Positions 49,215 to 60,990 of a stretch of DNA of 64,000 nt are shown here, one piece after another. Origin of the DNA: a plasmid; NCBI RefSeq assembly GCF_054482595.1, contig NZ_JBTHVH010000001.1; one strand, given 5' to 3'. Under the pieces are notes generated by a model. The model worked only from the letters and a program-made list of their open reading frames with translations, did no database searches and was not told where the DNA came from. Numbering within the stretch: position 1 is the stretch's first letter; every line of letters starts with the position of its first letter. Both the position numbers and the translations under genes were made by a program.

Positions 49215-49625
49215 CTACGCCTCCGGGAACGCTGGCCAATTGACATCTGGTGCAGTGCTGGTATCCGTTGCGGTCACCGCATCGATATAATCCAGCACAG
49301 CGTTAAGACGGGTGGTTTCAGCCTGCGTAAGATTCCGCCCGGCCTGTAATTTCAGTTGAATAAGACTAATGGAAGCCATTGCGGTATCAATCAGCGACTG
49401 TTTTTTCTGTTCAGCGTCAGCTACCAGTTCATCATGAGAACGTTCCGGAGTGGGTGGCGCAGTAAATCCCCCGTCTGAATACACCCAGCCGATTCCGGGC
49501 TGCTCACTGATATCAGAAATATTAATGAGCTGCTGATTATCCGGCACTGTGAATTCAGCCTCGCCATCCCAGACAATGACATTCACAACCATCCCATTTT
49601 CAATAACTGCATATGATGTATTCAT
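49215..49625 (-). CDS. tail fibre assembly chaperone (U/Tfa-like)
   Basis: 136-aa ORF with TAATG overlap to tail fibre stop. Confidence 0.65.
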   Translation of the reverse strand: MNTSYAVIENGMVVNVIVWDGEAEFTVPDNQQLINISDISEQPGIGWVYSDGGFTAPPTPERSHDELVADAEQKKQSLIDTAMASISLIQLKLQAGRNLTQAETTRLNAVLDYIDAVTATDTSTAPDVNWPAFPEA

Positions 49626-52600
49626 TATGCAAACTCCTCGATAATACAAATCCCTGCAGCGCCTTTCCCGCCCGTCATACTGGTTCCGCTATAACCGGCA
49701 TCGTATGCACCACCGCCGCCCGAACCATATGCCCGACCGATAACGCCACCGCCAGCGCCTGCGCGACCACCGCCCCCCCAGAACGATGATCCTCCTTCAC
49801 CACTGACGCTGATATTTCCGGACTGACCGTCACCTCCATGCCCACCAATAATGCGGACATCACCAGTATTCGGCGCGCCTCCATTACCACCGTTCGTGTT
49901 TGTGACTCCTACTTTCCCGCCGCCTTCACCGCCAGGGGCTATTACCGTTCCGAACGAGCTATCACCGCCCTTGAGGCCGTTCGTCGCACCAACACCGCCG
50001 CCCCCACCTGCGCCGATAGTGACTGGATAACTATTCTGTGTCGGGGTCATTATTGAAATTATTGTCCCACCGGCCCCACCGCCAGCACCGAAAAACGTCT
50101 CGTTATTGGATGTAGCCTGGCAGCCACCACCTCCGCCACCGCCGCCCGTAATTGTGACCCTGATTCGTTTTGTTCCTGGCGTCGGGGTATACGTACCTGA
50201 TGAAGTGAAAACCCGGGTATTCACCAAACGCCCAACATATCCGCTTGAATCGCTCAGGCCAAGGTTAGCAGCAGTTAAAGTAATATTTGCAGAACCATCA
50301 AACTTAACACCGTTGATAGTGCGTGCAGTCTGTAGTTTCGTTGCGGTTGCGGCATTACCGGTAGTGCTCTGATTACCTGCTTTATTCACGCCCGGCAGGT
50401 CGATATTGGCACTACCATCGAATGACACTCCGCCTATTGTGCGTGCTGTTTGCAGTTTTGTTGCAGTTGCAGCATTGCCGGTAGTGCTCTGATTACCTGT
50501 TTTATTCACGCCCGGCAGGTCGATATTGGCACTACCATCAAATGACACCCCGCCGATTGTGCGTACTGTTTGCAGTTTCGTAGCGGTTGCAGCATTGCCG
50601 TTCAAACTACCATTGATGCCGCCAGTAACATTGAGTCCATTACCGATCGTAACAGTACCATTGGCATTGTTAATGATAAGCGGCCTTAAATTATTATAGG
50701 TTCCCAGGCTGTTACCCGAATTGGTCAACATGAAATATGTGTTTGAACCATCGTTTCGGATAAAGAATCCGTAGTTTCCGTAGGCAATGCGCAGACCATT
50801 CGCCGATTTTGAAATGATCTCACCAGTAGCCGTTAAACCGCCGTTGAGATTTCCTCCGGTTATTGGTAATGCGCCGACATCCGTGGCGGTCGGTTTAATG
50901 TGCGAACTGTAAATTACATATACAGTTCCATCTGTCAGGCCTGTTGGTTTATTCGCTGTATAAGATGGTGATGTATGAATCGTTACGCTGGCGTTACTGG
51001 TATAATCCCACTGAATATTAACACGTGTGGTGTAATTACCTATTTCAACATAAACATCATAGGTATCACCGGATGTATTCACCCATGCAAAATTAGTAAA
51101 TCCAACCGATGTCCGTCGCCATAACGCACCAGTAAGACCTTTTGGATTCCCATTTCCCGCACGAAGAACAAGTTCAGATATACCAGCCTGCATAGGGGAG
51201 TTAACATTATATCCAGAACCACCAATCAGGCTTATGTAAACCACGGAACTGGACTGTGGCATGGTTACAGTTGCCAGCTTGAACCATCCAGTACCACCAC
51301 TAAAAGACATTGTTGTTGAGTTGATCGTGCCTATAGACCTTGGAGTTAGCTCAATGTTTTTAGAACCGTCAAACAACACCCCATTTATAGTTCTAGCGGT
51401 TTGTAACTTGGTCGCTGTCGCTGCATTACCGGATGTATTCTGATTACCCGCAACGTTAACACCAGGTAAATTAATATTCGCAGTACCATCAAAGCTAACT
51501 CCGCCGATAGTTCTTGCCGTCTGTAGTTTTGTAGCAGTTGCCGCATTGCCAGTTGTATTCTGATTGCCAGTGGCATTCACACCAGGAATGGAGTCCCTTG
51601 ATGTATATACCTGCGCCCACGCTGACCATGCCGCATCAGTGTGATCTCTTCGGGAGCGAATGAAAACCGGCGCATGTGCACCGCTCGTACCACTCCAGCC
51701 AATAAGCAACTCGCCCTCACCAGCAGCACTCGCACCTTTCATGTGCAATACGTTGCCATACGCGGTCGGGTAGCTATTGTTGTACGCCTCATACATCTGC
51801 AATCCAGTAGAAGCACCTTGTGTTGTATCGGTGAGCGCAGTAACACGCCCTCTGGACGCAATTGTTGGTATCGAAATGTTCGCAGAACCATCAAACTTAA
51901 CACCGTTGATTGTGCGTGCTGTTTGCAGTTTTGTTGCAGTTGCGGCATTACCGGTAGTGCTCTGATTACCTGCTTTATTCACGCCCGGCAGGTCGATATT
52001 GGCACTACCATCAAATGACACCCCGCCGATTGTGCGTACTGTTTGCAGTTTCGTAGCGGTTGCAGCATTGCCGGTAGTGCTCTGATTACCTGCTTTATTC
52101 ACGCCCGGCAGGTCGATATTGGCACTACCATCGAACGACACTCCGCCGATTGTGCGTGCTGTTTGCAGTTTTGTGGCGGTGGATGCATTACCTGTCAAAG
52201 ATCCACTAAGAGCCACGGCACTAAGAGACTTAACACTTACATCCTGACCCCATCCGGAAACAACAACCTGACTCCACGCTGTCCAGTTTCCATTAACAAC
52301 AAAGCGAACGTATATACGTTTTGTGTCGCTGTTAATCAGCGTTTGCATGTTCGCATAATCTGATCCCGTAGTCTTACGAATCGACTCTACACGAACCAAA
52401 AAGTTACCGCTTACGCCGTCAGGCTTATTGGTAATATTTGCACCACCTGCGACAGTTTTGCATTGATAGTATTTAACGGATCCAGCTTCTGTATTAGCAA
52501 TAATCAAGTCGTTTAAATCAATAGCCCGGCCGTCAATGGCTTCCGGCTCGATGGCTCCTGCTATCCCGGCACTGAATGTAGCAGCGGCTGAAAACGCTGT

Positions 52601-54139
52601 CTTACCTTTGAAAGTCTGTTGAGAACTCCAGGTATTAGCTGTGCTCAACAGGGGGATCTTTTCGCCGCTGGTTCCGATTTCTCTTAAACCAAGGTATTGG
52701 ATAACAGCCAGTGTGCTTGTTTTAGCCAGGATATCGCGACCGACTGACGTTAAATCAGTCTGGGAAACAGTGTCTGTACCGGTAAAGTACGGCAATTTAT
52801 TTGCGCCTGTCGCAAGACCAGCAAGCGCGGTTAAAGTTGCATCCAGAGGCTGTTTGCCTGCCAGCGCATTTGTCATTGTTGTCGCAAAGTTCGGGTCATT
52901 GCCCAGTGCTGCTGCAAGCTCATTCAGGGTATCAAGAGCTTCAGGTGATGAGCCGACCAATGCAGAGATAGCAGCTCTTACATAAGCGGTCGTAGCAATC
53001 TGCGTGTTATTCGTACCCTGTGCAGCGGTAGGCGCAGTAGGTATTCCCGTTAATGCAGGACTTGCTAAAGGAGCTTTAAGAGCCAGAGCATTGTTGATAG
53101 TTGTGCTGAAATTCGGGTCGTTATTGATCGCAGCAGCTATTTCTTTAAGCGTATCCAGTGTGCCAGGTGCACCGTTGATAAGTGCCGTTACAGCTGCCTT
53201 AACAAAGGCTGTATTTGCGATCTGCGTGCTGTTTGTACCTTGCGCTGCCGTCGGCGCGGTTGGCGTTCCTGTCAGACTCGGGCTTTCTATTGGCGCTTTG
53301 GTATCAGCCAGCTCTTTTACAGACTTAACGGCTTTAGGGGTAGCCGCCATTGTTTCGCTGTCGCTGTTAGTTGCGCTACTGAGCTGAACTAATCCCTTTT
53401 GTGTTGTGCTTGCATCCTGCGCCGTATACTTGCTTTTAGCCAGATCGTAGGCTTTTTTAACCGCCAGCGAACTTGCAGCGACATCACTTCTGGTACTGGT
53501 TACAGAGTCGGAAATTTCAATGCCTATCGCGAGATCGATGCGGTCGGATACATCTATCATTTCCTTAGTAATAGCAGATACGCCAGCAGGGATATTCACC
53601 GTACAAACAAGCAGTTCCCCATCTCCTAACTGATATGAATCGGTATAGGTTCTGGCAACAAATTCAGCCGCATGAATATGTGACGCGGTATTAACCTGAT
53701 AAGAATCTTCTCCAAGGAGGTATCTTCCCTTCAGCACAATTGCATATTTCTTACCTGCGCTAAGTGCAAGAGAAATATCCTTACGCTGCTGAATAGTTAC
53801 CTGGTAGAATTCACCAATATTCACTGACGCCGCGCCAGCGGTTTTATCACCATCCACTGAGGTGATTAACAGGTTCATCCCACCGCCAGGCTTAGGAAAA
53901 AAACCGGCATAAAATCCAGGGTCAACAATTCCCCTGAATTTTCGGTTTAGCGCGGCTGACAGATATGGTTCGTGGTATTGCACATCAGCCACCAGAGCCA
54001 ACGACTCGGGTGATGGGTAAGTAACCGATGTGACAACTGTAACGTCATTCATCAAGCATATCCTTATGCTGTAGTCGTGTTTATGGCCATAACTGCGGTA
54101 TATGTTTTGCCCACATACAGCGAGTCTTCCTGGACACAA
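49625..54139 (-). CDS. tail fibre protein (S-like), repeat-rich shaft and Gly-rich C-terminal domain
   Basis: 1504 aa; ~38-aa repeats GNQSTTGNAATATKLQTARTIGGVSFDGSANIDLPGVN; followed by Tfa gene. Confidence 0.8.
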   Translation of the reverse strand: MCPGRLAVCGQNIYRSYGHKHDYSIRICLMNDVTVVTSVTYPSPESLALVADVQYHEPYLSAALNRKFRGIVDPGFYAGFFPKPGGGMNLLITSVDGDKTAGAASVNIGEFYQVTIQQRKDISLALSAGKKYAIVLKGRYLLGEDSYQVNTASHIHAAEFVARTYTDSYQLGDGELLVCTVNIPAGVSAITKEMIDVSDRIDLAIGIEISDSVTSTRSDVAASSLAVKKAYDLAKSKYTAQDASTTQKGLVQLSSATNSDSETMAATPKAVKSVKELADTKAPIESPSLTGTPTAPTAAQGTNSTQIANTAFVKAAVTALINGAPGTLDTLKEIAAAINNDPNFSTTINNALALKAPLASPALTGIPTAPTAAQGTNNTQIATTAYVRAAISALVGSSPEALDTLNELAAALGNDPNFATTMTNALAGKQPLDATLTALAGLATGANKLPYFTGTDTVSQTDLTSVGRDILAKTSTLAVIQYLGLREIGTSGEKIPLLSTANTWSSQQTFKGKTAFSAAATFSAGIAGAIEPEAIDGRAIDLNDLIIANTEAGSVKYYQCKTVAGGANITNKPDGVSGNFLVRVESIRKTTGSDYANMQTLINSDTKRIYVRFVVNGNWTAWSQVVVSGWGQDVSVKSLSAVALSGSLTGNASTATKLQTARTIGGVSFDGSANIDLPGVNKAGNQSTTGNAATATKLQTVRTIGGVSFDGSANIDLPGVNKAGNQSTTGNAATATKLQTARTINGVKFDGSANISIPTIASRGRVTALTDTTQGASTGLQMYEAYNNSYPTAYGNVLHMKGASAAGEGELLIGWSGTSGAHAPVFIRSRRDHTDAAWSAWAQVYTSRDSIPGVNATGNQNTTGNAATATKLQTARTIGGVSFDGTANINLPGVNVAGNQNTSGNAATATKLQTARTINGVLFDGSKNIELTPRSIGTINSTTMSFSGGTGWFKLATVTMPQSSSVVYISLIGGSGYNVNSPMQAGISELVLRAGNGNPKGLTGALWRRTSVGFTNFAWVNTSGDTYDVYVEIGNYTTRVNIQWDYTSNASVTIHTSPSYTANKPTGLTDGTVYVIYSSHIKPTATDVGALPITGGNLNGGLTATGEIISKSANGLRIAYGNYGFFIRNDGSNTYFMLTNSGNSLGTYNNLRPLIINNANGTVTIGNGLNVTGGINGSLNGNAATATKLQTVRTIGGVSFDGSANIDLPGVNKTGNQSTTGNAATATKLQTARTIGGVSFDGSANIDLPGVNKAGNQSTTGNAATATKLQTARTINGVKFDGSANITLTAANLGLSDSSGYVGRLVNTRVFTSSGTYTPTPGTKRIRVTITGGGGGGGGCQATSNNETFFGAGGGAGGTIISIMTPTQNSYPVTIGAGGGGGVGATNGLKGGDSSFGTVIAPGGEGGGKVGVTNTNGGNGGAPNTGDVRIIGGHGGDGQSGNISVSGEGGSSFWGGGGRAGAGGGVIGRAYGSGGGGAYDAGYSGTSMTGGKGAAGICIIEEFA
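50240..52200. repeat. three clusters of ~114-bp near-identical direct repeats inside the tail fibre gene
   Basis: gcattaccggtagtgctctgattacctgctttattcacgcccggcaggtcgatattggcactaccatc recurs around 50350, 50470, 51940, 52060, variant around 51420. Confidence 0.6.
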
Positions 54140-56846: not shown

Positions 56847-57202
56847 AGCACCACGTCCTGTGTGATAGTTATATCCCTGATACGAATGGATATTTTCAAC
56901 TTATCAAAAGCATCTCCCTCGGCTACTGACAAGCCAGAAATCGGTATGTCAGGTAAATCTACCGTCAGTTTTTGCAACAGCATTGCCTCAACCGCAATTT
57001 GAACATGCGACAAGTTGGTCGGTTCGTGTTTAAACTGCGGTAAAACATTGCCCCATGACGGATCTCCGTATACCTCACCCTGATAAGTGTTTAGCCACTC
57101 ATATAAACGAGCGCCCCAGGCCTCCTCCTGGGACTCATACGTTTTTACGCCGGATAACTCCAGCGTCAGCAAAGGATCAATTTCGTTATTGTTGGCCATC
57201 AA
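56843..57202 (-). CDS. baseplate wedge (gp25/W-like) protein
   Basis: 119-aa ORF between sit and baseplate J-like gene. Confidence 0.4.
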   Translation of the reverse strand: MMANNNEIDPLLTLELSGVKTYESQEEAWGARLYEWLNTYQGEVYGDPSWGNVLPQFKHEPTNLSHVQIAVEAMLLQKLTVDLPDIPISGLSVAEGDAFDKLKISIRIRDITITQDVVL

Positions 57203-60200
57203 TCAACTCTCGCGTAGTCATTCATCAACGGATCATCAATTGACAGTGGTACCGTGCGCATAACGCCCGGCTGAGGCGTGCTGACCTTTACGACAGTTCC
57301 CTGGCCTTTCGCCGAGTCTTTGGTGTGCTCTTCAATCCTGGCAAGCAATGAGGTCATCTGCGCAAACAGCCGCTTCGTTTCACCATCAAGTGAAACGGTA
57401 TTATCAGCCAACTGCATTGTCGGCTTGGCACCGGAACCGCCAAGGTCACTAATAACCTGCCCGTCTATCTGCATACGACCGGTTGGTTGCTGCAAATCGT
57501 TGGCGGCAGTCGTCACCTTGGACGTGGAGGCTGGTTCAGGCGCATTATTTTTCCGCATCCCCGGCGAGTTGCGGAGTTTATCGAATAGTCCATCAATCCC
57601 CATTTGTGCGCCGAGTTGGTCAAAGTAACTTGAGTTGCTGGCCACCGGACGCGCCTCTTCAACTGGCATCGGAATATCAACATACACATTGCCAGCTGCT
57701 GTTGCGGTCCCCTTCCCTCGTGCACGTTCTTCGAGCGTTCCCTGAACGACTTCCCGACGCATACCCCGGCCATTCATGAATTTGTTGACCAGATCGTTAA
57801 CGCCAACAGCATTGCCGATTTTGTCTACCAGACCGCCTTTCTCAAACGGGCTATCACCAGGGGTAAACGCCAGGCCAGTAGACTGATCGATAACAGCGTT
57901 ATCAGGCAGTGGTCCCCTCACTCCATATTGCGCCCCACCCTGTGCTCCTGCTCCAGGTGTATAGATTTCACCACCTAAATAGCGAGCACGATGAGTATTG
58001 ACCTTGATCGCGTACTCACGGTTTTCTTTCGATAAGTCACCTGTGCCTTTTTTCCACTTATTGATAGTGCCAAACCCAGCGTTATATGCAGTGATGGCCT
58101 CGTTTAAGTCTCCATTGGCTTGCTTCAGATACTTGCTCATGAGAAGAGCCGCAGCTTCTGCCGATTTCACAGGATCAAACGATTCACCTTCAGCTAAGCC
58201 AGTCTCTTCACGAGCAATCCCCGTGAACTGAAACATTCCCAGAGCACCGGTTTGGGATTTTGCATACGGATTACCACCAGATTCAGTTGCAGCAATCGCG
58301 TAAAGAGTGCCTTCTGGAAGACCATATTTATTCTCTAGTTCAGCAAAATACGGAGCCAACTTATCGAGATTTGCCTTACCTTCAGATCCAAGACTTCCGA
58401 CTTTTACATCCAAGCGGCCATTGTTGTAGGTATCCGCAGCTTTCTGAATGTCACTCCTGGTGCCAGTGGTATTAAGCGACGATGATGACGAGCTATTTTG
58501 ACCAATAGCTTTATCAATTTTCTGCAACGCGCTATTGCCCGTTTCTACGGCATTTGCATTGATAATCTGATTCGCAGTTTCTTTAACTGTTTTATTGCTA
58601 TCTTTCGCCGTGTCCAGTGCCGCATTTATCACGCGGGTAACAATATTAGTCTGTTTGGCATCGGATTCAGTTTTAGAATCAGATGTCTCCTGGTGGCTAT
58701 TAACCGGAGCTTTTAACTCTGGAGTGATTTCTTTGGCATTAGCCTCGCTATTAACCGGAGCTTTTAACTGTGGAGCGATTTCTTTCGCATTAGCCTCGCT
58801 ATTAACCGGAGCTTTTAACTCTGGAGTGATTTCTTTCGCATTAGCCTCGCCGATCGGATTGGGTATTTTTGATACAATCATTGCCGCAGGGGTATTTTTA
58901 ACGGCATCAACCGCTGCATCTAATGCTTTACCAGGTAAATTTTTAACCCCATCCCAAATATTACCAGCCGCCTCTTTAATGTGTTTCCCTGGGTTCTTAA
59001 TGAAATCAATTGCACTATCAATTGCATCACTGAAAACCTGTTTCAGGTTATCAACAGTAAAGAAGTCTTTGATGGCATCCAGCTTTTCAAGCAGCTTATT
59101 AGATGTATCGCTAAACCATGCTGAAACAGCATCACCAATCTTTGCTGTGTAATCTTCGAACTTGGTAGAAATGGTGTCGCCAAGGTTAGAAATATATGTT
59201 TCTAAGTTGGTAATCCCACTATCAATGGCCTGGGCAATACTTTCCGTCGAAAATGATTGCAACATATTGCCGATATCCTCAAATCCAAGTGATTTGAGAA
59301 CCTCACCAATGGCGCTGCTAATACCAGATACCAGTCCCCCCATATCAAGAACATTGGCTAACGTATAAGCGGCTTTTTGCTGGAATGATGGATCTTGTCC
59401 TGATTTAAGCCCAAACGCTCGACGTTGCGCTTCTGTATCATTCCAACCGGTTACCGCATCATAAATACCTCCAGCCACTGTGCCGACTAAGGGAATTGCG
59501 CGTAACGCCCCTTTACCAACTGCCTTTAATCCAAGTTTACCTGCTGCCCGGGCAGCCAAATCTCCACCTTCATGGGCGATAGTCTTCTTGCCACCACCGC
59601 GTAGCATTCCTACAAGTTTCTTTGCCCCCAGAGCGCCAAAAGCGAGTGCTCCAGCTTTTTTCAGCATGCCACGCCCCATTAACAACGACGCGACGCCACC
59701 GGCCCCCTTCCCTAACAGGCTAAATAGTTTGGACAGCAAGCCGCCCTTCTTTTTCCCGGTGTTTTTGGCTATCTGATCAAGGGCGCTGAGAATCTTGTCA
59801 TTGCCCTCTTTAATTTCGCTGGTCTGCTCCTGAAGTTCCTGAACTGTCCGTTTTTGGGTGTTAACCTGAACGACATCGGCACTATTTTGCGATTTACGCC
59901 TAAAAAAACCTTTTCTACGGCTGTTATCGTCATTGCCACGAATCACATCGGCAATAGACTTTCTGGCACCATTAAGCGATCCACCAACTTCTTTTGATAT
60001 CCCGCCAAGCTCCTTCCCTGCTGCCCACAATGGACCAGCAACGGCATAACCTAACGCATCAACGGCACGAGTCTCTGAAGGGTTACCTATGCCTTCAGCT
60101 ACTTTTGACAGTTTTTTTAATAAACCTGATTCAGCATTTAGACGCTCATCATCCTCTTTACGCCTGGCCTTTTCAGCACGTTCAGCACGGGCATCTTCCG

Positions 60201-60990
60201 CTGCGGCCTTACTCCCTGACTTTCCAATAAAACGACCACGCGCATCGCGTTGGTTTTGGCTTTTTTGCGCACCGCCTTTTTGATCGAACATTTCGCGAGC
60301 GTGTTCGGCTGCTTCGGTCCGTTGTGCCTTTATATCCTCTGGTATAGCCTTCCTGCGTCGTTTTTTACCCTTTGGTGTAGTTGATTTGGCCTGCTGTTCC
60401 TGTTGAGCAATGCCCTCCTGAACTACACGAGAAACGTCCCCTAAATTAAGCCGTTTCATTGCGTCAACAATAGGGTCTACTGATGGCGCATTGGCCACAA
60501 AGTCTGGCCGGGAATTTTCGATTGTTCGATTTAATGCCGACACACTGCGAGATACTGGGTCAACCGTTGCAACGCGTTCCCCTTTCAAATCACGAGCGAG
60601 TTTAACCGTTTCTAACCGCTGTGCTTTAACATCCTCTGTTATTGCCTCTCTTCGTCTATTTGGGGGATTGTGCGCTGTTGGTGCAGCCTGCTGTGCACGG
60701 TTAGTGACTTTGTCCTCCCGTATACGAGAAACGTCCCCTAAATTAAGCCGTTTTATTGCGTCAACAATAGGGTCCACTGATGGCGCATTGGTCACAAAGT
60801 CAGGACGTGAATTTTCGATTGTGCGATTTAATGCCGACACACTGCGAGAGACAGGATCAACAGTTGCAACTCGTTCCCCTTTCAAATCTTCAACAGCTTC
60901 CCGAATACCTGCAAGCTCTTCCAGCTCTTTCGCGCTGGCGGTTTCAACTGTCCTTATAACATCGTCAATATTGGCGTTTTTTCTTTCCAT
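57199..60990 (-). CDS. sit: injection transglycosylase / tape-measure-like protein with SLT domain
   Basis: 1263 aa; lytic transglycosylase motif YAIAATESGGNPYAKSQTGALGMFQFT; internal tandem repeats. Confidence 0.7.
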   Translation of the reverse strand: MERKNANIDDVIRTVETASAKELEELAGIREAVEDLKGERVATVDPVSRSVSALNRTIENSRPDFVTNAPSVDPIVDAIKRLNLGDVSRIREDKVTNRAQQAAPTAHNPPNRRREAITEDVKAQRLETVKLARDLKGERVATVDPVSRSVSALNRTIENSRPDFVANAPSVDPIVDAMKRLNLGDVSRVVQEGIAQQEQQAKSTTPKGKKRRRKAIPEDIKAQRTEAAEHAREMFDQKGGAQKSQNQRDARGRFIGKSGSKAAAEDARAERAEKARRKEDDERLNAESGLLKKLSKVAEGIGNPSETRAVDALGYAVAGPLWAAGKELGGISKEVGGSLNGARKSIADVIRGNDDNSRRKGFFRRKSQNSADVVQVNTQKRTVQELQEQTSEIKEGNDKILSALDQIAKNTGKKKGGLLSKLFSLLGKGAGGVASLLMGRGMLKKAGALAFGALGAKKLVGMLRGGGKKTIAHEGGDLAARAAGKLGLKAVGKGALRAIPLVGTVAGGIYDAVTGWNDTEAQRRAFGLKSGQDPSFQQKAAYTLANVLDMGGLVSGISSAIGEVLKSLGFEDIGNMLQSFSTESIAQAIDSGITNLETYISNLGDTISTKFEDYTAKIGDAVSAWFSDTSNKLLEKLDAIKDFFTVDNLKQVFSDAIDSAIDFIKNPGKHIKEAAGNIWDGVKNLPGKALDAAVDAVKNTPAAMIVSKIPNPIGEANAKEITPELKAPVNSEANAKEIAPQLKAPVNSEANAKEITPELKAPVNSHQETSDSKTESDAKQTNIVTRVINAALDTAKDSNKTVKETANQIINANAVETGNSALQKIDKAIGQNSSSSSSLNTTGTRSDIQKAADTYNNGRLDVKVGSLGSEGKANLDKLAPYFAELENKYGLPEGTLYAIAATESGGNPYAKSQTGALGMFQFTGIAREETGLAEGESFDPVKSAEAAALLMSKYLKQANGDLNEAITAYNAGFGTINKWKKGTGDLSKENREYAIKVNTHRARYLGGEIYTPGAGAQGGAQYGVRGPLPDNAVIDQSTGLAFTPGDSPFEKGGLVDKIGNAVGVNDLVNKFMNGRGMRREVVQGTLEERARGKGTATAAGNVYVDIPMPVEEARPVASNSSYFDQLGAQMGIDGLFDKLRNSPGMRKNNAPEPASTSKVTTAANDLQQPTGRMQIDGQVISDLGGSGAKPTMQLADNTVSLDGETKRLFAQMTSLLARIEEHTKDSAKGQGTVVKVSTPQPGVMRTVPLSIDDPLMNDYARVD

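Follow-up and report, generated by a model that had tools for sequence, protein, structure and literature searches.

Tandem repeats are a familiar feature of phage tape-measure proteins (TMPs), the canonical form being a helical repeat of 11-residue period, marked by an aromatic residue and present in many copies (Belcaid et al. 2011, PMC3271669), and 11-residue repeats are also present in the TMPs of SA3821 and TP901-1. In lambda gpH, TP901-1 and the 11-residue-repeat TMPs, unit numbers vary in frame by duplication and deletion among close relatives, and tail length changes with protein length by ~0.145-0.15 nm per residue. The corresponding candidate in phage P1 is Sit, which is described in the sit note of the P1 GenBank record as 'putative structural injection transglycosylase; putative tail ruler'. 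Sit has been detected in virions, and the case has been made that Sit, and not gp6, is the tape measure, a protein helical over its N-terminal two-thirds whose C-terminal SLT domain contributes the tail lysozyme activity missing from P1 gp5 (Gonzales et al. 2022, PMC9024508), and a 2026 cryo-electron microscopy study lists it as the TMP, located in the central baseplate and tail cavity and released on contraction (PMC12810830). Here we describe a tandem array of 17-residue units within the sit gene of a P1-like plasmid, analyzed in a 64,000-nucleotide stretch of contig NZ_JBTHVH010000001.1 (RefSeq assembly GCF_054482595.1; hereafter the window). The copy number of this array varies among natural relatives, and each added unit may slightly lengthen the tail.

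The sit genes of P1 and P7 are the reference alleles of the window gene. The proteins of these phages (1,140 and 1,130 residues, respectively) share with the window the same gene, operon position, SLT domain and unit sequence, but they carry one 17-residue unit and one 99-residue unit where the 1,263-residue window protein carries three and two. At the DNA level the window sit is 96-98% identical to that of P1, P7, JL22, RCS47 and other Punavirus genomes, and the Sit families themselves are its top PHROG matches. A preliminary description of the window, made from the sequence, had treated the host gene as a tape-measure-like sit, and this identification agrees with the homology to P1 Sit, the 'putative tail ruler' note and both published accounts of the protein.

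We ran Tandem Repeats Finder and a repeat search on the whole window and extracted the units in codon phase (Table 1). The array was recovered with a period of 51, 3.0 copies, 95% matches, no indels and a score of 289, and the repeat search placed its copies 51 and 51 bp apart, matching the reference copy at 94% and 98% identity. The preliminary description had reported three near-identical tandem repeats of 48 bp, encoding a 16-residue unit, at positions 58690 to 58860; an array does lie within that interval, but its period is 51 bp and 17 residues, and the unit quoted there itself has 17 residues. The three copies are indeed 94-98% identical, but the exact peptide occurs only twice, since the middle unit is a variant with two residue changes, T to A (ACT to GCT) and E to Q (GAG to CAG). 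Between the outer units there is a single synonymous difference (GCG versus GCC). The full 155 nt correspond to 3 x 51 + 2, the extra GC being a microhomology common to the unit end and the upstream flank. Self-alignment of sit, which had been proposed as a check, confirmed the repeats: the longest exact self-match at lags of 30 to 120 nt is 39 nt, against no more than 12 nt when the gene was shuffled 30 times, and the array therefore did not arise by chance. Only four tandem arrays scoring at least 50 were found across the window, and the 51-bp in-frame repeat of sit is far beyond chance expectation.

Table 1. Features of the window sit gene and its product (nucleotide positions are those of the window; residues are those of the window Sit)
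Feature	Position	Strand	Description	Basis
sit open reading frame	57199-60990	minus	1263 aa + stop; homologue of P1 Sit	Open reading frame list, translation, alignment
Two tandem 297-bp (99-aa) units	60295-60888	minus	aa 35-133 and 134-232	Repeat search and alignment
Gly-rich, partly hydrophobic stretch	59281-59793	minus	aa ~400-570	Composition profile
Predicted disordered spacer holding the three units	58669-58866	minus	aa 709-774	AlphaFold2
Tandem array	58696-58850	minus (coding)	3 x 51 bp + 2-nt GC; aa 715-765	Tandem Repeats Finder, repeat search
Unit 1 (coding order)	58798-58848	minus	EANAKEITPELKAPVNS	
Unit 2 (coding order)	58747-58797	minus	EANAKEIAPQLKAPVNS	
Unit 3 (coding order)	58696-58746	minus	EANAKEITPELKAPVNS	
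SLT lytic transglycosylase domain (PF01464)	58021-58350	minus	aa 881-990	Pfam, 95.7 bits (cutoff 21.3)

Copy number was compared among relatives with a 355-nt query consisting of the array and its 100-nt flanks, with match spans of 253, 304, 355 and 404 nt taken as 1, 2, 3 and 4 copies. Counts derived from match spans in this way are approximate, and query coverage is unusable for the purpose since one target copy aligns to several query copies; a four-copy query was added to catch longer arrays. All 16 matching phage records fell into the one-copy class, with none in the classes of two, three or four. Among 393 matching plasmids in PLSDB, 26 carried two copies, 10 carried three and one (pVPS18EC0801-3, CP063718.1) carried four, the remainder (~350) being single-copy. 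The 380 matching records from complete Escherichia coli genomes included at least 33 with two copies, 11 with three and none with four. An evenly spaced sample of 60 PLSDB rows contained three, two and one copies in 2, 4 and 53 records. The three-copy carriers include pE2-2 (NZ_CP048917.1) and the plasmid of strain H8 (NZ_CP010173.1). Protein alignment likewise showed one unit each in P1, P7 and JL22 and three in the window, and a single diverged equivalent (KADAKEVTPELKTPAKES) in SJ46 and phi456.

The same steps are evident in protein length. The best 120 matches from a collection of 5.8 billion proteins fall into length classes 17 residues apart, with Sit proteins of 1,229, 1,246, 1,263, 1,280 and 1,297 residues corresponding to 1, 2, 3, 4 and 5 units; in a second series, offset by 10 residues and reaching 1,307 residues, the SLT domain carries a P1-type insertion. 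The sit of CP063718.1, a complete four-copy plasmid, encodes 1,280 residues. At the DNA level, one five-copy locus and two four-copy loci (on contigs of 92-94 kb) contain arrays that are exact multiples of 51 bp, and IMG/VR adds three contigs carrying two or three copies.

Two unit types, distinguished by ITPE (T) and IAPE (A), account for the arrays. The commonest architectures are T, T-A, T-A-T, T-A-A-T and T-A-A-A-T, and the rarer ones are T-T, A-A-T, T-A-A, T-A-T-T, T-T-A-T, T-A-T-A-T and a single A. This diversity of orders argues for repeated, independent gains and losses rather than a single old duplication, and the gain and loss of internal units between conserved flanks is the mark of slippage during replication, or of unequal recombination, among the 51-bp direct repeats. 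The flanks remain 95-100% identical while copy number runs from 1 to 5, and 51 is 3 x 17, as is characteristic of a coding variable-number tandem repeat (VNTR). The comparison with other P1-like sit genes, which the preliminary description had also proposed, thus identifies the unit as a length-variable module present once in P1 and P7 and one to five times in natural relatives, and the array is almost certainly an in-frame VNTR, behaving as expected of slippage or unequal recombination, in the tape-measure gene of P1-like phage-plasmids.

We considered whether the array might instead be an assembly error, or an element acting at the level of DNA (a set of binding sites, a promoter or terminator, or part of an antisense gene). 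A 185-aa open reading frame with a TTG start spans the array on the plus strand (58595-59152), and two weak hairpin-plus-T matches lie within the units. The plus-strand frame mirrors a conserved coding frame, however, and was judged spurious, promoter-like and terminator-like matches are at the level of shuffled sequence, inverted repeats were not found, and an iteron set is ruled out by the presence of a single unit in P1. Every allele is in frame within sit over more than 1,200 codons. As for assembly, the 355 nt of the window are identical in two independent complete plasmids, pE2-2 (NZ_CP048917.1) and NZ_CP194955.1, and nine to ten more complete records have three copies. We rejected both the artifact and the DNA-level role on these grounds, and together they are hardly credible as an explanation of the array.

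The window Sit carries a second tandem module, a 99-residue N-terminal duplication whose matching 212-nt cores (60677-60888 and 60380-60591) are 84% identical in DNA. By alignment, the duplication is present in phi456 and not in P1, P7, JL22 or SJ46, and plasmid pEC12-3 (NZ_CP060935.1) has three 99-residue units but has lost 1 nt near gene position ~1081, its sit being annotated as a pseudogene. We examined the association of the two modules with a long query covering both, applied to evenly spaced PLSDB rows, 45 of which were informative. A single N-terminal unit with one 17-residue unit was found in ~31 of these, the N-terminal duplication with one 17-residue unit in 9, and the duplication with two or three 17-residue units in 5; multiple 17-residue units without the duplication occurred in none of the 45 sampled rows. 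The two-, three- and four-copy loci that we inspected directly also carry the duplication. A naive hypergeometric test of this association gives p of ~0.002 but ignores shared ancestry, which is the simplest explanation of the pattern.

To place the array in the protein, we modeled residues 600-1010 of Sit as a monomer with AlphaFold2, using an alignment of 27 sequences that included distant relatives. The spacer (residues 110-175 of the modeled segment) was predicted as unbroken coil containing all three units, with a predicted local distance difference test score (pLDDT) of 32-39. Helices were predicted upstream, at residues ~601-704 (pLDDT 50-74), and downstream, at residues 775-832, and the SLT fold was confident (pLDDT >90 over residues ~849-1004). 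The composition profile shows nine prolines at residues 701-762 and a high disorder-type score; each 17-residue unit contains two prolines and no tryptophan, phenylalanine or tyrosine, and the spacer is rich in glutamate, lysine and alanine. The units probably lie, on the basis of this model, in a proline-punctuated disordered spacer between the helical body and the stalk of the SLT domain.

These properties set the array apart from the repeats of described TMPs. The latter are built of helical 11-residue units with a tryptophan or phenylalanine marker, present as 19-29 repeats that form the body of the ruler, whereas the Sit unit is a 17-residue predicted coil with two prolines and no aromatic residue, present in 1-5 copies in one spacer of a contractile-tailed phage. 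We therefore rejected assignment to the canonical 11-residue class, on period, composition, predicted structure and copy number. A parallel in architecture is offered by mycobacteriophage TM4 gp17 (motif 3) and T5 pb2, in which, as in Sit, a long tape measure is fused to a muralytic domain, a parallel drawn by Gonzales et al. (PMC9024508). TM4 and T5 are siphophages and differ from the contractile P1 type in this respect, and no natural VNTR spacer beside the hydrolase domain has been described in either.

The spacer is poorly conserved outside the close relatives of P1. We searched 1.84 billion cluster representatives exhaustively with HMMER and aligned the full-length relatives. Those at 33-36% identity (P0125 and P0127-P0129) lack all of the ~160 residues that separate the helical body from the SLT domain, and those at 47-53% identity have an unrelated, nonrepeated sequence in the spacer position. 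A Pfam search with the unit returned only subthreshold noise and no family, and a search of PDB sequences matched the SLT domain only, with no match to the unit. Because distant homologues lack the region and no Pfam family matches it, the unit is, as judged from these comparisons, a lineage-specific spacer element.

We hypothesize that the units act through the length of Sit. Sit would be threaded through the 40-Å lumen of the tail tube and would limit tube polymerization, so that each unit would add 17 residues to the ruler. The first duplication would have been a rare event, plausibly at the 2-nt GC microhomology, with homologous slippage among the 51-bp units thereafter. The P1 tail measures 2,450 Å and has 53 tube and 53 sheath rings with a rise of 40 Å, a sheath of 2,100 Å and a lumen of 40 Å (Yang et al. 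2023, PMC10304247). Dividing 2,100 Å by 1,140 residues gives 1.84 Å per residue (up to 2.1 with the whole 2,450-Å tail), which is of the right order and above the helical value. At the 1.45-1.75 Å per residue of other phages, or the ~1.84 Å implied by P1, one unit would correspond to ~2.5-3 nm, and three units in place of one would add ~5-6 nm, or 1-2 extra 40-Å tube and sheath rings to the 53 of P1. The whole 123-residue excess of the 1,263-residue Sit over that of P1, which includes the N-terminal duplication, would amount to ~20 nm or 5-6 rings.

This scaling is inferred because changes in TMP length alter tail length in lambda, TP901-1 and TM4. In every TMP tested, lambda included, internal changes in length alter tail length roughly proportionally; in TP901-1 the value is 0.145 nm per residue, and a region outside the repeats counts toward length as well; and removal of 114 residues covering the nonhelical hydrolase motif leaves TM4 viable, with a tail ~20 nm shorter. 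Taken together, the reading in which a slippage VNTR in a disordered spacer of Sit adds tail length has a probability that we estimate at roughly 0.55. The component claim that added units lengthen the tail slightly, which rests on analogy with these phages, is close to an even bet.

Several points weigh against this reading. Few sequences cover the spacer, so that the alignment behind the model is shallow there and the low pLDDT partly reflects a lack of information, and a spacer that is indeed disordered could compact, in which case the added residues would not give extra rings. The absence of the region from distant relatives implies that it is dispensable for basic TMP function. Sit could not be resolved in the P1 cryo-electron microscopy maps (PMC12810830), and any path or stoichiometry given to it in the lumen is therefore putative. 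Alleles with more than one unit occur in none of the 16 matching sequenced phage isolates, and the carriers are not necessarily working phages. In 5 of the 11 three-copy records among complete E. coli genomes (pEC12-3 and four related ones), the annotation splits sit or gives it two coding sequences. The one of these five that was inspected, pEC12-3, has sit as a frameshifted pseudogene, reflecting decay of phage function or, alternatively, a sequencing error within one plasmid lineage. Tail measurements of multicopy alleles were not found in the literature searched, nor were electron microscopy data on in-frame length mutants of P1 Sit; the phi456 paper gives no tail length, and neither the JL22 P1-like survey nor a 2025 phage-plasmid survey mentions sit.

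Several of these observations would also fit neutral slack, in which the same slippage VNTR drifts in copy number while the extra residues are absorbed in the lumen, leaving ring number, infectivity and host range unchanged. The very low confidence of the predicted coil, the absence of the region from distant homologues and the unrelated sequence found there in relatives at 47-53% identity, and the diverged single unit of the SJ46/phi456-type Sit are all compatible with such slack, as is the distribution of alleles: ~90% of PLSDB carriers are single-copy, with no sign of a sweep, and multicopy alleles occur only in the sublineage with the N-terminal duplication, as would follow from one rare founding duplication and easy slippage afterwards. 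The TMPs that have been tested speak the other way, however, in that internal deletions shorten their tails roughly proportionally, even in nonhelical or nonrepeat parts. So does P1's tail length: an all-helical Sit would span 1,140 x 1.5 Å, or 1,710 Å, short of the tube of at least 2,100 Å, a shortfall that requires the nonhelical segments of Sit to be extended and to contribute to length. We regard neutral slack as somewhat unlikely, and prefer the reading in which added units contribute to tail length.

A stronger form of this preferred reading would make P1-like phage-plasmids naturally polymorphic for tail length through two independent VNTR 'dials', the 17-residue module with 1-5 copies and the 99-residue module with 1-3, expanded in the same sublineage and together giving tails up to ~30-40 nm (8-10 rings) longer than that of P1. 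We consider it doubtful. If true, it would provide a natural stepwise series of tail lengths in a model contractile phage, and selection might favor longer tails, for example in reaching through thicker capsule or O-antigen layers.

The position of the array also raises the possibility that copy number acts after ejection. The preliminary description had offered injection-channel span as an alternative to tail length, and in that case copy number would tune a flexible tether between the ejected, membrane-inserting Gly-rich part of Sit and its SLT domain, setting periplasmic reach in different hosts. The array does lie between these two regions (Table 1), Sit is ejected on contraction, and its SLT domain is argued to supply the lysozyme activity that P1 gp5 lacks. 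Against such tuning, ~85 further residues that include predicted helices already part the array from the SLT domain, and no host-linked pattern of copy number was seen among the inspected carriers, those with 1-4 copies all being E. coli IncY P1-like plasmids. A proline-punctuated flexible linker that varies by unit number is exemplified by the Pro-rich, periplasm-spanning region of TonB. The TonB linker and the Sit spacer are alike in their Glu/Lys/Ala/Pro composition, in their predicted lack of a fixed structure and in their place between a membrane-active part and a functional domain, but the Sit unit has no sequence homology to it and no Pfam match above threshold, so that this is a resemblance only. 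Host-tuned reach is unlikely as the main role of the array. Even if added units chiefly contribute to tail length, the spacer would also determine, after ejection, how much slack parts the SLT domain from the membrane-active region of Sit.

The other regions of Sit are consistent with its assignment. The SLT domain, ~115 residues downstream of the array, is the only Pfam domain found in the window protein, the E and S of its TES motif (E304 and S305 of the modeled segment) are near-invariant in the alignment, and the PDB sequence matches of Sit are MltC-type transglycosylases. Upstream of the helical segment leading into the array lies the Gly-rich stretch, the best-conserved part in distant TMP-like relatives, many of which match at query positions ~360-520. 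A second low-confidence linker, immediately upstream of the SLT domain, holds a run of six serines (QNSSSSSSLNTTG) at 58471-58488 (residues 835-840).

Variation in sit extends beyond the two tandem modules. P1 Sit has a 10-residue insertion (TLTRSPNGKL) and several nearby substitutions within the SLT domain, all of them missing from the window (~58227, residue ~920), P7, JL22 and phi456. Both SLT types are found with 1-5 repeat units, in the length series beginning at 1,229 and 1,239 residues, a pattern suggestive of shuffling of sit segments by recombination. Diverged blocks are common to SJ46 and phi456 in the Gly-rich region (residues ~430-500, with an 8-residue insertion) and around the repeat spacer (~690-780), and phi456 nonetheless shares the N-terminal duplication and the SLT type of the window; this mix of SJ46-like and window-like blocks indicates that sit is a mosaic.

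The tail operon around sit has the same order as in P1 (pmgC-tub-pmgB-sit-pmgA-bplA-16-R). In Pfam searches of the neighboring genes, the BplA of the window matches gp6-like and Baseplate_J families, and its homologue is named 'bleomycin hydrolase' by the NCBI pipeline in many P1-like plasmids, a label that is likely a propagated misannotation. Elsewhere in the window, an open reading frame at 49625-54139 (minus strand) encodes a 1,504-residue tail-fiber protein with Pfam matches to Phage_fiber_2, Gp34_trimer and Gly_rich_2. It contains two 120-bp tandem arrays (50315-50600 and 51887-52192) of 2.4-2.5 copies with 87-89% matches and a related consensus.

Gain and loss of tandem repeats in tape-measure genes is already known, and we do not describe a new mechanism. 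The departure from the textbook case lies in a proline-containing, probably disordered unit beside a muralytic domain and in the host, an ultra-long-tailed contractile phage, and no report of a 17-residue VNTR in P1-type sit was found in the literature searched. The effect of the array is probably small and may be nil, and if copy number has no effect the array is an ordinary slippage-prone linker. In either case it provides a length-variable marker in a gene belonging to the core of P1-like phage-plasmids, elements that commonly carry resistance genes, and marks a spot where short-read assembly and annotation pipelines can err. The contractile tail of P1, a classic model phage, is unusually long at 53 rings, and the natural allelic series of Sit, from 1,130 to at least 1,307 residues and differing by whole units at two sites, offers a ready-made test of the P1 ruler. 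This series bears on whether a disordered spacer counts in the ruler of a myophage, and on how 1,140 residues measure a 2,100-Å tube.

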